Shown here: piece after piece, positions 1 to 4,189 of the stretch | Numbering within the stretch: the first letter of the stretch is position 1 | Layout of the letters: each line of letters opens with the position of its first letter | Source of the DNA: Escherichia phage Qbeta | Sequence record: LC710219.1 | Strand: one strand, 5' to 3' | DNA length: 4,189 nt | Program-made: the position numbers and the translations under genes | The notes under the pieces: generated by a model | Told to the model about the DNA's origin: nothing | The model's input: the letters and a program-made list of their open reading frames with translations, nothing else | Database searches by the model: none

Positions 1-51
1 CCTTAGGGGGTCACCTCACACAGCAGTATTTCACTGAGTATGAGAGGACAT
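1..51 (+). other. 5' untranslated leader, truncated at the 5' end; G-run at 6..10 is the 3' arm of a terminal hairpin whose 5' arm is mostly outside the window
   Basis: No in-frame start before the A2 gene except the ATG at 40; GGGGG at 6..10 has only 2 complementary C residues upstream (1..2) in the window. Levivirus genomes begin with a G-rich 5' hairpin (established knowledge). Confidence 0.7.
42..48 (+). promoter_or_regulatory. Purine-rich Shine-Dalgarno-like element (GAGAGGA) upstream of the A2 start codon
   Basis: GAGAGGA at 42..48, 3 nt before ATG at 52..54; spacing is on the short side. Confidence 0.45.
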
Positions 52-1314
52 ATGCCTAAATTACCACGTGGTCTGCGTTTCGGAGCCGATAATGAAATTC
101 TTAATGACTTTCAGGAGCTCTGGTTTCCAGATCTCTTTATCGAATCTTCCGACACACATCCGTGGTACACACTGAAGGGTCGTGTGTTGAACGCTCATCT
201 TGACGATCGCCTACCTAATGTAGGTGGTCGCCAGGTCAGGCGTACTCCGCATCGCGTCACCGTCCCGATTGCCTCTACAGGCCTTCGTCCGGTGACAACC
301 GTTCAGTATGATCCTACAGCACTATCGTTCTTATTGAACGCTCGTGTTGATTGGGATTTCGGTAATGGTGATAGTGCGAACCTGGTCATTAATGACTTTT
401 TGTTTCGCACTATTGCACCTAAGGATTTCGATTTCTCGAACTCCTTAGTTCCTCGTTATACTCAGGCCTTCTCCGCTTTTAATGCTAAATATGGCACTAT
501 GATCGGCGAAGGGCTCGAGACTATAAAATATCTCGGGCTATTACTGCGCAGACTGCGTGAGGGTTACCGCGCTGTTAAGCGTGGCGATTTACGTGCTCTT
601 CGCAGGGTTATCCAGTCTTACCATAATGGTAAATGGAAACCGACTACTGCTGGTAATCTCTGGCTTGAATTCCGTTATGGCCTTATGCCTCTCTTTTATG
701 ACATCAAAGATGTCATGTTAGATTGGCAGAAACGCCATGATAGGATCCAACGCCTCCTTCGGTTTTCAGTCGGTCACGGTGAGGACTATGTTGTCGAATT
801 CGACAATCTATATCCGGCCGTTGCCTACTTTAAACTTAAAGGTGAGATTACACTCGAACGCCGTCATCGGCACGGTATATCCTACGCTAATCGCGAGGGA
901 TATGCTGTTTTCGATAACGGTTCCCTTCGGCCCGTGTCCGATTGGAAGGAACTTGCCACCGCATTCATCAATCCGCATGAAGTTGCGTGGGAGTTAACTC
1001 CCTACAGCTTCGTTGTTGATTGGTTCTTGAATGTTGGTGACATACTTGCTCAGCAAGGTCAGCTGTATCATAATATCGATATCGTAGACGGTTTTGACAG
1101 ACGTGACATTCGTCTCAAATCTTTCACTGTAAAAGGTGAACGAAATGGACGACCTGTTAACGTTTCTGCTGACCTGTCTGCTGTCGATTCATTTTACAGC
1201 CGATTCCATACGAGTAAGCTTCCGTTCGCTACACTTGATCTTGATACTACCTTCAGTTCGTATAAACACGTTCTTGATAGTATCTTTTTATTAACCCAAC
1301 GCATTAAGCGTTGA
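52..1314 (+). CDS. A2: Maturation (A2) protein: pilus attachment protein and, in Qbeta-type phages, the lysis effector; 420 aa
   Basis: ORF track 40..1314, reading MPKLPRGLRFGADNEILNDFQELWFPDLF from the ATG at 52; recognised from memory as near-identical to Qbeta A2; stop TGA at 1312..1314; length and first-gene position match the levivirus maturation protein. Start at 52 preferred over the in-frame ATG at 40 (see findings). Confidence 0.93.
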   Translation: MPKLPRGLRFGADNEILNDFQELWFPDLFIESSDTHPWYTLKGRVLNAHLDDRLPNVGGRQVRRTPHRVTVPIASTGLRPVTTVQYDPTALSFLLNARVDWDFGNGDSANLVINDFLFRTIAPKDFDFSNSLVPRYTQAFSAFNAKYGTMIGEGLETIKYLGLLLRRLREGYRAVKRGDLRALRRVIQSYHNGKWKPTTAGNLWLEFRYGLMPLFYDIKDVMLDWQKRHDRIQRLLRFSVGHGEDYVVEFDNLYPAVAYFKLKGEITLERRHRHGISYANREGYAVFDNGSLRPVSDWKELATAFINPHEVAWELTPYSFVVDWFLNVGDILAQQGQLYHNIDIVDGFDRRDIRLKSFTVKGERNGRPVNVSADLSAVDSFYSRFHTSKLPFATLDLDTTFSSYKHVLDSIFLLTQRIKR

Positions 1315-1334
1315 AACTTTGGGTCAATTTGATC

Positions 1335-1736
1335 ATGGCAAAATTAGAGACTGTTACTTTAAGTAACATCGGGAAAGATGGAAAACAAACTCTGGTCCTC
1401 AACCCGCGTGGGGTAAATCCCACTAACGGTGTTGCCGCGCTTTCACAAGCGGGTGCAGTTCCTGCGCTGGAGAAGCGTGTTACCGTTTCGGTATCTCAGC
1501 CTTCTCGCAATCGTAAGAACTACAAGGTCCAGGTTAAAATCCAGAACCCGACCGCTTGTACTGCAAACGGTTCTTGTGACCCATCCGTTACTCGCCAGGC
1601 GTATGCTGACGTGACCTTTTCGTTCACGCAGTATAGTACCGATGAGGAACGAGCTTTTGTTCGTACGGAGCTTATCGCTCTGCTCGCTAGTCCTCTGTTG
1701 ATCGATGCTATCGATCATCTGAATCCAGCGTATTGA
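1335..1736 (+). CDS. Major coat (capsid) protein, 133 aa, ending in a leaky UGA
   Basis: ATG at 1335..1337 gives MAKLETVTLSNIGKDGKQTLVLNPRGVNPTNGVAALSQAGAVPALEKRVTVSVSQ...LNPAY, recognised from memory as Qbeta coat protein; the track ORF 1311..1736 starts at an upstream TTG that is not the real start; stop TGA at 1734..1736. Confidence 0.95.
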   Translation: MAKLETVTLSNIGKDGKQTLVLNPRGVNPTNGVAALSQAGAVPALEKRVTVSVSQPSRNRKNYKVQVKIQNPTACTANGSCDPSVTRQAYADVTFSFTQYSTDEERAFVRTELIALLASPLLIDAIDHLNPAY

Positions 1737-2330
1737 ACACTGCTCATTGCCGGTGGTGGCTCAGGGTCTAAACCCGATCCGGTTATTACTCCTCCGGATC
1801 CACCGATTGATCCGCCGCCAGGGACAGGTAAGTATACCTGTCCTTTCGCAATTTGGTCCCTAGAGGAGGTTTACGAGCCTCCTACTAAGAACCGACCGTG
1901 GCCTATCTATAATGCCACTGAACTCCAGCCTCGCAAATTTGATGTTGCCCTTAAAGATCTTTTGGGCAATACAAAATGGCGCGACTGGGATTCACGGCTT
2001 AGTTATACCACGTTCCGCGGTTGCCGTGGCAACGGTTATATTGACCTTGATGCGACTTATCTTGCTACTGATCAGGCTATGCGTGATCAGAAGTATGATA
2101 TTCGCGAAGGCAAGAAACCTGGTGCTTTCGGTAACATTGAGCGATTCATTTATCTTAAGTCGATAAATGCTTATTGCTCTTTAAGCGATATTGCGGCCTA
2201 TCACGCCGATGGTGTGATAGTTGGCTTTTGGCGCGATCCATCCAGTGGTGGTGCCATACCGTTTGACTTCACTAAGTTTGATAAGACTAAATGTCCTATT
2301 CAAGCCGTGATAGTCGTTCCTCGTGCTTAG
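1335..2330 (+). CDS. A1: A1 read-through minor capsid protein (coat protein plus C-terminal read-through domain), 331 codons including the recoded UGA
   Basis: Frame 0 stays open from 1737 to the TAG at 2328..2330 (my manual translation of 1737..1961 plus track ORF 1962..2330): TLLIAGGGSGSKPDPVITPPDPPIDPPPGTGKYTCPFAIWSLEEVYEPP...CPIQAVIVVPRA, recognised as the Qbeta read-through domain. Followed by a second stop TAA at 2331..2333. Confidence 0.9.
1734..1736 (+). promoter_or_regulatory. Leaky UGA stop codon of the coat gene (programmed read-through / recoding site, decoded as Trp at low frequency)
   Basis: UGA followed by A (UGA-A context) and by 197 in-frame sense codons with no stop until 2328; read-through of the coat UGA is established for Qbeta. 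Confidence 0.88.
1737..1832 (+). other. Gly/Ser-rich then Pro-rich flexible hinge linking the coat domain to the read-through domain of A1
   Basis: Translation TLLIAGGGSGSKPDPVITPPDPPIDPPPGTGK; nucleotide-level near-repeats CCGATCC / CCGGATCC / CCGATTGATCC at 1774..1815. Confidence 0.75.
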
Positions 2331-2335
2331 TAACT

Positions 2336-2340
2336 AAGGA
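2336..2340 (+). promoter_or_regulatory. Shine-Dalgarno element (AAGGA) for the replicase gene
   Basis: AAGGA at 2336..2340, 8 nt upstream of the ATG at 2349; it overlaps the non-initiating ATG at 2340..2342. Confidence 0.6.
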
Positions 2341-2344
2341 TGAA

Positions 2345-2364
2345 ATGCATGTCTAAGACAGCAT
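2345..2364 (+). promoter_or_regulatory. Coat-protein-binding translational operator hairpin (represses replicase translation; also the packaging recognition element)
   Basis: AUGCAUGUCUAAGACAGCAU folds as an 8-bp stem (2345-2348/2361-2364 and 2350-2353/2357-2360) with a bulged A at 2349 (the A of the replicase AUG) and a 3-nt loop UAA at 2354..2356. This matches the Qbeta operator architecture (3-nt loop, bulged A) known from the literature. Confidence 0.85.
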
Positions 2365-4118
2365 CTTCGCATAACTCTCTTAGCGCACAATTGCGCCGAG
2401 CTGCGAACACAAGAATTGAGGTAGAAGGTAACCTCGCACTTTCCATTGCCAACGATCTACTGCTGGCTTATGGTCAATCGCCATTTAACTCCGAGGCTGA
2501 GTGTATTTCACTCAGTCCGAGATTCGACGGGACCCCGGATGACTTTAGGATAGGTTATCTTAAAGCCGAGATCATGTCGAAGTATGACGATTTCAGCCTA
2601 GGTATTGATACCGAAGCTGCTGCCTGGGAAAAGTTCCTGGCAGCAGAGGCTGAATGTGCTTTAACGAACGCTCGCCTCTATAGGCCTGACTACAGTGAGG
2701 ATTTCAATTTCTCACTGGGCGAGTCATGTATTCACATGGCTCGCAGAAAAATAGTCAAGCTAATAGGAGACGCTCCGTCCGTTGAGGGTATGTTGCGTCA
2801 CTGCCGTTTTTCCGGCGGTGCCACGACAACGAATGACCGTTCGTACGGTCATCCGTCCTTCAAGTTTGCGCTTCCACAAGCGTGTACGCCTCGGGCTTTG
2901 AAGTATGTTTTGGCTCTTAGAGCTTCTACACATTTCGATATCAGGATTTCTGATATTAGCCCTTTTAATAAAGCAGTTACTGTACCTAAGAACAGTAAGA
3001 CTGATCGTTGTATTGCCATTGAACCCGGCTGGAATATGTTTTTCCAACTAGGTATCGGCGGCATCTTACGCGATCGGTTGCGTTGCTGGGGTATCGATCT
3101 GAATGATCAGACGATAAATCAGCGCCGCGCTCACGAAGGCTCCGTTACTGATAATTTAGCAACGGTTGATCTCTCAGCGGCAAGCGATTCTATATCTCTT
3201 GCTCTCTGTGAGCTCCTACTGCCTCCAGGCTGGTTTGAGGTTCTTATGGATCTCAGATCACCTAAAGGGCGGTTGCCTGACGGTAGTGTCGTTACTTATG
3301 AGAAAATATCCTCTATGGGTAACGGGTACACATTCGAGCTTGAGTCGCTTATTTTCGCTTCTCTTGCTCGTTCCGTTTGTGAGATACTGAACTTAGACTC
3401 ATCTGAGGTCACTGTTTACGGAGACGATATTATTTTACCGTCCTGTGCAGTTCCTGCTCTTCAGGAAGTCTTTAAGTATGTTGGTTTTACGACCAATACT
3501 AAAAAGACCTTCTCTGAGGGGCCGTTCAGAGAGTCGTGCGGTAAGCACTACTATTCTGGCGTAGATGTTACTCCCTTTTACATACGTCACCGCATAGTGA
3601 ACCCTACCGATTTAATACTGGTTTTGAATAACCTATATCGGTGGGCCACGATTGATGGTGTATGGGATCCTAGGGCCCATTCCGTGTACCTCAAGTATCG
3701 TAAGTTGCTGCCTAAACAGCTGCAACGTAATACTATACCTGATGGTTACGGCGATGGAGCCCTCGTCGGATCGGTCTTGGTCAATCCCTTCGCGAAAAAC
3801 CGCGGATGGATCCGGTACGTACCGGTGATCATAGACCATACAAGGGACCGAGAGCGCGTCGAATCGGGATCGTATCTCTACGATCTCTTTTCGCGTTGCT
3901 TCTCGGAAAGTAACGACGGGTTGCCTCTAAGGGGTCCGTCGAGTTGCGATTCTGTAAGTCTATTTGCCATAGATCAGCTTATCTGTAGGAGTAATCCTAC
4001 AAAGATAAGTAGATCTACTGGTAAATTCGATATACAGTATATCGCGTGCAGTAGCCGTGTTCTGGCACCCTACGGGGTCTTCCAGGGCACGAAGGTTGCA
4101 TCTCTACACGAGGTGTAA
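2349..4118 (+). CDS. RNA-dependent RNA polymerase (replicase beta subunit), 589 aa
   Basis: Track ORF 2340..4118; true start taken as the second ATG (2349) giving MSKTASSHNSLSAQLRRAANTRIEVEGN...; contains the YGDD catalytic motif; recognised from memory as near-identical to Qbeta replicase; stop TAA at 4116..4118. Confidence 0.95.
   Translation: MSKTASSHNSLSAQLRRAANTRIEVEGNLALSIANDLLLAYGQSPFNSEAECISLSPRFDGTPDDFRIGYLKAEIMSKYDDFSLGIDTEAAAWEKFLAAEAECALTNARLYRPDYSEDFNFSLGESCIHMARRKIVKLIGDAPSVEGMLRHCRFSGGATTTNDRSYGHPSFKFALPQACTPRALKYVLALRASTHFDIRISDISPFNKAVTVPKNSKTDRCIAIEPGWNMFFQLGIGGILRDRLRCWGIDLNDQTINQRRAHEGSVTDNLATVDLSAASDSISLALCELLLPPGWFEVLMDLRSPKGRLPDGSVVTYEKISSMGNGYTFELESLIFASLARSVCEILNLDSSEVTVYGDDIILPSCAVPALQEVFKYVGFTTNTKKTFSEGPFRESCGKHYYSGVDVTPFYIRHRIVNPTDLILVLNNLYRWATIDGVWDPRAHSVYLKYRKLLPKQLQRNTIPDGYGDGALVGSVLVNPFAKNRGWIRYVPVIIDHTRDRERVESGSYLYDLFSRCFSESNDGLPLRGPSSCDSVSLFAIDQLICRSNPTKISRSTGKFDIQYIACSSRVLAPYGVFQGTKVASLHEV
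3417..3428 (+). other. RdRp catalytic motif C (Y-G-D-D) within the replicase
   Basis: TAC GGA GAC GAT in the replicase frame (codons 357-360), in the context VTVYGDDIILPS. Confidence 0.9.
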
Positions 4119-4126
4119 CCTGGGAG

Positions 4127-4143
4127 GGCGCCGATATGGCGCC
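4127..4143 (+). other. 3' UTR RNA hairpin: 6-bp GC-rich stem GGCGCC/GGCGCC with 5-nt loop GAUAU
   Basis: GGCGCC (4127..4132), GATAT (4133..4137), GGCGCC (4138..4143); GGCGCC is self-complementary. Confidence 0.55.
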
Positions 4144-4169
4144 TAATTGTGAATAAATTATCACAATTA
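4144..4169 (+). other. 3' UTR RNA hairpin: 9-bp stem UAAUUGUGA/UCACAAUUA with 8-nt loop AUAAAUUA
   Basis: TAATTGTGA (4144..4152) is the exact reverse complement of TCACAATTA (4161..4169); loop at 4153..4160. Confidence 0.6.
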
Positions 4170-4189
4170 CTCTTATGAGTGAGAGAGGG

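Follow-up and report, generated by a model that had tools for sequence, protein, structure and literature searches.

Genomes of Qbeta-type phages have the termini 5'-GGGG...CCCA-3' with terminal hairpins, the ends expected for the present genome being GGGG(G)ACCCC... and ...CCCUCUCUCCUCCCA-3', and the coat and A1 proteins of Qbeta are widely used as display scaffolds. Described strains include laboratory Qbeta (AB971354, Anc(P1), and AY099114), the field strains HL4-9 (FJ483841) and TW18 (FJ483840), and three Qubevirus phages from the USA with E. coli MG1655 carrying the F plasmid as host, FrHibiscus (PP430143), FrBurgundy (PP430142), and FrMerlot (PP430144); M11 (AF052431) and MX1 (AF059242) were also used for comparison. 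Eleven different Qbeta-clade genomes, natural or reference and of full or near-full length, were found in the phage collection, and one partial contig was present in two metagenome collections. Despite its name 'Qbeta', the RefSeq entry NC_001890.1 contains the MX1 sequence. It aligned with 83% of the window, the whole 4,189-nt stretch of DNA analyzed here, at only 74.5% identity, and anyone taking it for the 'Qbeta reference' would be misled into seeing a distant relative.

The comparison with these phages indicated that the window is almost certainly a cDNA-sense (+ strand) genome copy of Escherichia phage Qbeta (Qubevirus durum, Fiersviridae), representing a natural strain and falling short of a complete genome by some 10 nt at the 5' terminus and some 25 nt at the 3' terminus. 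Its type is already known, its biology is that of a known phage, and its sequence is ordinary.

Results

The window matches Qbeta-group phages from end to end

The 4,189-nt window was aligned with the Qbeta-group ssRNA coliphages over its entire length (megablast E = 0, 100% coverage). Matches to the Pfam families Phage_mat-A, Levi_coat, Read-through, and RNA_replicase_B reached 205–720 bits against cut-offs of 25–27, and all four products matched solved Qbeta proteins (PDB) over their full length. The E value of 0 over 100% of the window and these Pfam scores exclude chance.

The original prediction had described the whole window as a near-complete Qbeta-type ssRNA phage genome, and every near match was a Qubevirus. 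The order it gave, maturation, coat, read-through, and replicase, all on the + strand, was collinear with ten annotated Qbeta-clade records, and its intergenic gaps of 20 nt and 18 nt were measured at 1315–1334 and 2331–2348. Its figure of 4,067 of 4,189 nt filled by the products was correct for the span 52–4118 including both gaps and incorrect for the coding sequence, which is 4,029 nt. The translations were Qbeta-like, as it had stated, with amino acid identities to laboratory Qbeta of 96.4% (A2 and replicase), 97.0% (coat), and 98.2% (A1); the range of 96.4–98.2% is not too low for homology. When best matches outside Fiersviridae were looked for, all near ones were Qubevirus, and nearly all of the 1,597 replicase-matching records were named as ssRNA phages. 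The scattered amino acid differences that it had pointed out came, relative to Qbeta Anc(P1) (AB971354), to 15 (A2), 4 (coat), and 21 (replicase) substitutions; the read-through extension had 2, together with a two-residue insertion.

Variable sites were found at the third codon position in 180/245 cases for A2, 33/51 for coat, 74/111 for the read-through extension, and 206/296 for replicase. Synonymous changes far exceeded non-synonymous ones between the window and every Qbeta-clade strain, and purifying selection was shown in all four frames.

The window groups with environmental Qbeta-clade strains

Whole-window nucleotide identity was 96.2% to FrHibiscus, 96.2% to FrBurgundy, 95.9% to FrMerlot, 95.4–95.5% to HL4-9, 95.1% to TW18, and 94.2–94.3% to Qbeta Anc(P1); across ten Qbeta-clade genomes it ranged from 91.6 to 96.2%, versus 70–71% to M11/MX1. 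In the neighbor-joining tree the window was sister to FrMerlot plus FrHibiscus/FrBurgundy (bootstrap 100%) inside the Qbeta clade, and the clade uniting it with Qbeta, TW18, HL4-9, and the Fr phages was also recovered with a bootstrap of 100%. This grouping, with 5.7% nucleotide difference from laboratory Qbeta, is in line with the earlier suggestion of a close variant that need not be the reference strain. Among the 11 strains, 29 substitutions were private to the window.

Gene order, gap lengths, and an enlarged A1 linker are shared with FrHibiscus, FrBurgundy, and FrMerlot, whereas about 4% of nucleotides differ and the A1 linker of the window is 3 nt shorter (+6 versus +9 relative to Qbeta). 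With Qbeta, HL4-9, and TW18 the window shares the species-level clade, an identical operator hairpin, and identical intergenic regions. M11 and MX1 resemble it in architecture, read-through, operator-type hairpin, and 3' UTR hairpin pattern, and the records file both under Qubevirus durum, but identity falls to 64–67% for A2 and 71% for replicase. Identity of the window with phage Cute (OP321095) was considered and rejected: the published coordinates of that phage imply 3 nt more between UGA and operator. The exact sequence did not occur in any collection searched. The replicase protein was absent from the contig index, and a window-specific 35-mer had no match in IMG/VR; the replicase-based IMG/VR scan and the scan of JGI metagenomes with a conserved 36-mer both led to one and the same BR12-like contig of 2,890 nt, 91.3% identical. 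Closer relatives could be LC710219 (Qbeta GIII_C) and OP321095, which the literature names and which did not appear among the matches listed.

Three other origins were weighed against a natural Qbeta strain. Laboratory populations make up many of the Qbeta records in the collection (KC137xxx, MH108xxx, JF7197xx, and GQ1539xx), so that a laboratory stock or an experimentally evolved line would be a conceivable source in place of an independent natural strain. All of those records are, however, 93.6–94.3% identical to the window, as is Qbeta Anc(P1), from which it differs by 175 synonymous and 42 non-synonymous codon differences and a 6-nt insertion. This divergence is far above that among the laboratory records, judged by their narrow identity range; the searched collection contained no record of laboratory lineage with more than 99% identity, and the window groups with environmental isolates (bootstrap 100%). 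A laboratory origin is therefore highly improbable. Membership in a different ssRNA phage group, be it Qubevirus faecium (FI/SP type), the M11/MX1 lineage, or Emesvirus (MS2 type), is hardly credible. Family-level gene order and replicase fold are common to these groups and the M11/MX1 records carry the same species name, yet M11/MX1 showed only 70–71% nucleotide and 71% replicase identity, and replicase matches beyond the Qbeta clade were below 60% identical except for M11, MX1, and NC_001890.1 (60–80%). Among the MS2 matches listed, replicase identity was 38–47% over partial lengths, and the MS2 type is excluded because a read-through domain is present and no overlapping lysis ORF is conserved. 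Other-group membership was thus refuted by nucleotide identities, protein identities, and replicase matches.

A recombination mosaic of Qbeta-clade lineages is somewhat less far-fetched, though still improbable. The A1 protein is nearer to Qbeta (98.2%) and FrSangria/HL4-9 (97.9%) than to FrHibiscus (96.1%), A2 and replicase are nearest to FrHibiscus, and the nearest strain shifts along the genome in 300-nt windows. No sharp switch was seen, however, and the best and second-best strains were only a few sites apart per 300 nt. Changes confined to FrHibiscus/FrBurgundy, e.g., ARLPLRQ for VELQPRE/K, account for the A1 pattern, and the 14 A1 differences from FrHibiscus are mostly changes on the FrHibiscus side. 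A mosaic origin was considered and found unsupported by the difference counts in 300-nt windows, and a single natural Qbeta-clade strain remains the preferred reading.

The 5' region and the A2 gene

The 5' untranslated region (1–51, + strand), aligned to HL4-9, TW18, and Qbeta Anc(P1), lacks about 10 nt of the genome 5' end (GGGG(G)ACCCC...) and contains the A2 Shine-Dalgarno GAGAGGA. An A-to-G polymorphism creates an in-frame upstream AUG at 40–42 (+ strand), which is common to FrHibiscus, FrBurgundy, HL4-9, TW18, and VK and reads AUA in Qbeta, FrMerlot, FrSangria, BZ1, and BR12. This AUG is probably not used as a start, because the Shine-Dalgarno sits downstream of it. In the program-made ORF list, upstream AUGs in the same frame shift the starts of A2 and replicase to 40 and 2340. 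The real starts are placed at 52 and 2349, respectively, by the annotation of all relatives and by alignment with solved Qbeta proteins over the full length.

The gene for the A2 maturation/lysis protein (52–1314, + strand, 420 aa; Pfam PF03863, 453 bits) matched the solved Qbeta A2 structures 5vlz/5mnt over its full length. Amino acid identity was 96.4% to Qbeta and 98.6% to FrHibiscus. The substitutions relative to Qbeta Anc(P1) are S76T, A89T, F121I, E125D, A198T, R219K, N227K, K231R, I360V, S374D, L380S, L385F, N389K, F404Y, and V418I. By analogy with Qbeta, A2 would bind the F pilus and would also cause lysis, in Qbeta via MurA block and hence with no separate lysis gene. Among alternative-frame and minus-strand ORFs of at least 60 aa, none remained open in the Qbeta clade and M11/MX1 alike, which fits the lack of a separate lysis gene. 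Additional genes, whether in another frame or on the minus strand, were considered and found no support.

The coat gene and the A1 read-through extension

The 20-nt intergenic gap before the coat start (1315–1334, + strand) had 0/20 variable positions among 11 Qbeta-clade strains. The coat protein gene that follows (1335–1736, + strand, 133 codons including Met; Pfam PF01819, 205 bits) matched PDB 5kip/1qbe, with 97.0% amino acid identity to Qbeta, and Cys75 and Cys81 are present. The differences from Qbeta Anc(P1) are G10S, S35A, A114I, and Q128H (Met = 1).

Translation of the coat gene stops at a presumably leaky UGA (1734–1736, + strand; context UAU UGA ACA CUG), annotated in relatives as the A1 read-through point. 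This UGA and the next two bases (AC) were invariant in 13/13 strains. The frame is open through UGA to a UAG UAA double stop, giving a whole A1 product of 331 aa (1335–2330, + strand), of which the extension (1737–2330, + strand) comprises 197 codons followed by UAG UAA. The extension matched the Pfam Read-through domain (PF16814, 319 bits) and the A1 protein of PDB 3rlc (E = 2.9e-128). By analogy, a few percent of the ribosomes translating the coat gene would read through the UGA to produce the minor capsid protein A1.

In alignments with Qbeta, the proline-rich A1 linker of the window contained an insertion of six nucleotides (Thr-Pro; 1788–1793, + strand). It falls in an indel hot spot at 1777–1793, where four length classes occurred among 11 strains. 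Relative to Qbeta Anc(P1), the extension carries this Thr-Pro insertion after residue 151, V193T, and E199K.

The Rfam scan returned only a sub-threshold mir-2574 match, present on both strands at 1920–1993 (22.8 versus a 90-bit cut-off), which is simply a conserved hairpin.

The operator hairpin and the replicase gene

The 18-nt gap between A1 and replicase (2331–2348, + strand) contains the replicase Shine-Dalgarno UAAGGAUGA and had 0/18 variable positions among 11 strains. The coat-protein operator hairpin AUGCAUGUCUAAGACAGCAU (2345–2364, + strand) encloses the replicase AUG and folds as expected, with an 8-bp stem, a bulged A, and a 3-nt loop; it was identical in 11/11 Qbeta-clade strains. 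The window coat matched the coat chain of PDB 4l8h, which we take to be the coat–operator complex. The published Qbeta operator 20-mer is the same as positions 2345–2364 of the window (PMC12724129). By analogy with Qbeta, the hairpin is a putative translational repressor site, and binding of coat dimers to it would shut off replicase translation.

The gene for the replicase beta subunit (RNA-dependent RNA polymerase; 2349–4118, + strand, 589 aa) matched Pfam PF03431 (720 bits), and residues 1–588 matched PDB 3mmp/3agp/4q7j with about 1,315 bits. Amino acid identity was 96.4% to Qbeta and 98.3% to FrHibiscus. The polymerase palm motif YGDD, read from the sequence, lies at residues 357–360 (3417–3428, + strand), and Asp274 is present along with this catalytic motif. 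Differences from Qbeta Anc(P1) are R8H, F55L, N69G, V91A, A136V, V142A, N163D, N268D, D348N, and R372Q in the first part, and S418N, A420T, I478V, T495I, A504V, L506S, L518F, G532S, A536V, D537S, and A589V in the remainder. Copying of the RNA would be expected to involve the beta subunit in complex with host EF-Tu, EF-Ts, and S1.

The 3' region and the probable RNA nature of the genome

Relative to HL4-9, TW18, and Qbeta, the window starts some 10 nt downstream of the 5' terminus and ends some 25 nt upstream of the 3' terminus, and the part present aligned ungapped. End alignment showed that its 3' untranslated region (4119–4189, + strand) lacks the last nucleotides (...AUCUGCUUUGCCCUCUCUCCUCCCA), about 25 in number. 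The region had a fold z of -4.6 and contains two hairpins, at 4126–4144 and 4145–4168, with 7/20 pairs kept via changes on both sides (Qbeta, VK/BR12, M11/MX1). A long-range interaction between the 3' end and the M-site and a pseudoknot were reportedly described by Klovins and van Duin in 1998 and 1999. A complementarity scan for the 3'-end/M-site interaction gave too many G.U-tolerant candidates to pick one, and a 3' hairpin-loop partner at 3152–3158 (7-nt complement) was rejected as polymorphic among strains.

Fold z-scores averaged about -6.5 on both strands. When 5,426 E. coli genomes and 72,556 plasmids were searched, nothing matched the window, and promoter-like and terminator-like motifs in the window occurred at chance level only. 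From indirect but concordant evidence, namely the taxonomy of the relatives (Leviviricetes), the unchanged operator hairpin, the fold z, the compensatory pairs of the 3' UTR, and the lack of an E. coli genome or plasmid match, we infer that the natural molecule is RNA. As in the related phages, this single-stranded RNA would serve as both genome and mRNA.

Discussion

The window adds one natural genome to the small set of Qbeta-clade sequences. For display scaffolds, the variable length of the A1 linker marks a site at which insertions are naturally tolerated. Annotation of such a genome should follow RNA-phage logic, with one coding strand, a leaky stop, and translational control by RNA structure, without promoters or terminators.

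Natural variation within the Qbeta clade has recently become relevant through strain differences in ApeA sensitivity. According to a 2026 preprint, close Qbeta relatives differ in their sensitivity to the ApeA defence, apparently via an RNA stem-loop in the replicase gene, and this stem-loop was linked to ApeA sensing in FrSangria. In the same stem-loop (3581–3664) the window carries a private change, a G.U wobble at 3659; its other private changes are the Thr-Pro insertion of the A1 linker, G69, D163, D268, and S537 of replicase, and H128 of coat. It is conceivable, though rather unlikely, that the window represents a so far unsequenced natural Qbeta sublineage whose private changes might alter the phenotype relative to laboratory Qbeta, e.g., in the response to RNA-sensing defence such as ApeA or in particle or host-range properties.

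Relationship of the window to Qbeta strains

A megablast search of 50,697 phage records with the whole window matched 81, all of which were Qubevirus. In a MAFFT alignment of the window and twelve genomes, nucleotide identity to the window was 96.2% for both FrHibiscus and FrBurgundy, 95.9% for FrMerlot, 95.5% for HL4-9, 95.1% for TW18, 94.7% for FrSangria, 94.3% for the laboratory Qbeta Anc(P1), 92.2% for VK, 91.7% for BZ1 and 91.6% for BR12, and 70.8% and 69.8% for the distant M11 and MX1, respectively. The neighbour-joining tree placed FrMerlot with the FrHibiscus and FrBurgundy pair as the sister group of the window (100% bootstrap), and this assemblage was nested in a 100% clade with HL4-9, TW18, FrSangria and Qbeta. 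In a comparison of the 11 Qbeta-clade genomes, only 29 nucleotides were unique to the window. No exact copy of the window occurred in the collections searched; it may represent a strain missing from them or a GenBank entry that they do not cover, such as one of the LC7102xx series or a close relative of OP321095. The original prediction of a Qbeta-type genome and close variant was borne out by the megablast matches, the alignment, the tree and the protein identities.

All Qbeta records from laboratory stocks or experimental evolution were 93.6–94.3% identical to the window by megablast, indicating at the sequence level that the window represents an independent natural lineage and not a laboratory derivative; a laboratory line is excluded by this divergence together with the tree position. 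Membership of another ssRNA phage group is excluded by identity, with replicase matches outside the Qbeta clade being less than 60% identical except for M11, MX1 and NC_001890.1 (60–80%). The closest strain changes along the genome, but these shifts amount to a few sites per 300 nt, and the lower identity of A1 (the coat read-through product) to FrHibiscus results from changes private to FrHibiscus and FrBurgundy; a recombinant origin is not supported.

End alignment showed that ~10 nt of the 5′ terminus and ~25 nt of the 3′ terminus are absent from the window; among the Fr phages, several deposited assemblies are similarly truncated. Qbeta-clade genomes are very rare in the IMG/VR and JGI metagenome data, because the only such contig found (L013 = L093; IMGVR_UViG_3300019216_000421/Ga0179939_1057709) was a 2890-nt fragment, 96.9% identical to BR12 and 91.3% to the window.

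The RefSeq record NC_001890.1, named "Escherichia phage Qbeta", gave coordinates and scores identical to those of AF059242.1 (locus L012), which is described as bacteriophage MX1. Since these records are only about 70–75% identical to true Qbeta strains, a comparison that takes NC_001890.1 as "the Qbeta reference" can make relatives look far more distant than they are, which seems to have happened with the A2 comparison of PMC12724129.

Gene organization and start sites

The six-frame ORF list and the sequence gave four plus-strand products: A2 (maturation/lysis protein, 52–1314), coat (1335–1736), A1 (1335–2330, the coat frame remaining open from 1737 until it meets the double stop UAG UAA at 2328–2333) and replicase (2349–4118), with intergenic gaps of 20 nt (1315–1334) and 18 nt (2331–2348). 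These products and gaps were as predicted, and the predicted 4067 nt holds for the span 52–4118 including both gaps but not for coding sequence, which is 4029 nt. The mechanical ORF finder started A2 at AUG 40 and replicase at AUG 2340, the in-frame AUGs at 40–42 and 2340–2342 lying just upstream of the real starts and lengthening the ORFs by 4 and 3 codons, respectively. The annotated starts in 10 relatives are equivalent to 52 and 2349, and with these starts the alignment to the solved chains of Qbeta A2 and the beta subunit begins at residue 1. An A/G polymorphism creates the AUG at 40, which the window shares with five other strains; that at 2340 is conserved and lies within the replicase Shine-Dalgarno sequence.

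Protein conservation

A2 (Phage_mat-A, 453 bits), coat (Levi_coat, 205 bits), the read-through extension (Read-through domain PF16814, 319 bits) and replicase (RNA_replicase_B, 720 bits) all matched Pfam families, with full-length matches to the solved Qbeta structures 5vlz/5mnt, 5kip/1qbe/4l8h, 3rlc (A1 domain) and 3mmp/3agp/4q7j, respectively. Compared with Qbeta Anc(P1), A2 carries 15 substitutions (96.4% identity), coat 4 (97.0%) and replicase 21 (96.4%), and A1 is 98.2% identical. The replicase YGDD polymerase motif (residues 357–360) and Asp274 were present, as were both coat cysteines (75 and 81, Met = 1).

Across the 11 Qbeta-clade strains, variable sites fell mainly at the third codon position in every frame (positions 1/2/3: A2, 39/26/180; coat, 13/5/33; read-through extension, 23/14/74; replicase, 61/29/206), and synonymous codon differences exceeded non-synonymous ones several-fold against most of these strains. 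The read-through extension shares the third-position bias of the other frames and is therefore under purifying selection as a protein. The A1 linker at 1777–1793, directly before a PDPPIDPPP stretch, was an indel hot spot. Its four in-frame length classes among the 11 strains, relative to Qbeta, were +0 (Qbeta, TW18, VK, BZ1, BR12), +3 (HL4-9, FrSangria), +6 (the window; Thr-Pro, 1788–1793) and +9 (FrHibiscus, FrBurgundy, FrMerlot), which suggests that the linker tolerates insertions.

RNA elements and folding

The 20-mer AUGCAUGUCUAAGACAGCAU at 2345–2364 matches the published Qbeta coat-protein operator exactly (PMC12724129) and shows no variation among the 11 strains. It is predicted to fold as expected, into an 8-bp stem with a 3-nt loop and a bulged A, enclosing the replicase AUG. 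Neither intergenic gap varied (0/20 at 1315–1334 and 0/18 at 2331–2348) among these strains, which differ at up to 8% of sites overall, suggesting that the ribosome-binding regions and the RNA structure they form are under strong constraint.

Two 3′ UTR hairpins were predicted at 4126–4144 and 4145–4168 (z = −4.6), and 7 of their 20 pairs stay paired via two-sided changes among nine distinct sequences. In the first hairpin, four adjacent pairs co-vary: M11/MX1 account for three and BR12 for the fourth, a C-G to U-A change. This hairpin (GCGCC-GAUAU-GGCGC) carries in its loop a private A-to-G at 4133, which is probably neutral since the loop varies among strains (AAUAU, AUUAU, ACUAU).

Over ten consecutive 400-nt segments, mean fold z was −6.5 and −6.4 on the two strands against dinucleotide shuffles. 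The sole exception to strong folding was plus-strand segment 1201–1600 (z = −2.8), which contains the coat start, while minus-strand segment 2401–2800, the M-site region, reached z = −12.6 with only 40 shuffles. From knowledge of Qbeta replication, such folding would be expected of a genome with both strands single-stranded and folded.

A long stem-loop at about 3581–3664 in the replicase gene corresponds, with coordinates mapped approximately, to one in FrSangria (own coordinates 3582–3665) reported in a 2026 preprint as the trigger of the ApeA defence nuclease. In the window its apical part is predicted to fold like those of FrHibiscus and HL4-9, and a private C-to-U at 3659 puts a G.U wobble in place of a basal G-C pair.

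Rfam gave no family at threshold in the window. A sub-threshold mir-2574 match on both strands at 1920–1993 in the A1 gene (22.8 and 21.9 bits; 90-bit cut-off) was rejected as a miRNA and marks a genome structure element, a long hairpin that is largely kept in 12 strains, 3 of its pairs having two-sided changes.

Searches of 5,426 complete E. coli genomes and 72,556 plasmids gave no match to the window, which also had no tRNA, and promoter-like (3 vs 5.7 ± 2.5) and terminator-like (7 vs 3.8 ± 1.9) motifs were at shuffle level. Of the 8 alternative-frame or minus-strand ORFs of at least 60 aa, none remained uninterrupted in the Qbeta clade as well as in M11/MX1.

Proposed mechanism

According to established knowledge of Qbeta, the RNA would serve as both mRNA and genome, with the coat gene translated first and a small fraction of ribosomes inserting Trp at the UGA to yield the minor virion protein A1. 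Replicase translation would be repressed late in infection by coat dimers bound to the operator, and A2 would act in F pilus binding, RNA protection and lysis. The beta subunit would recruit EF-Tu, EF-Ts and S1 (PMC4176380). The window contains, in conserved form, the sequence features on which each of these steps depends, and the kind, species and mechanism that it represents are all already known.
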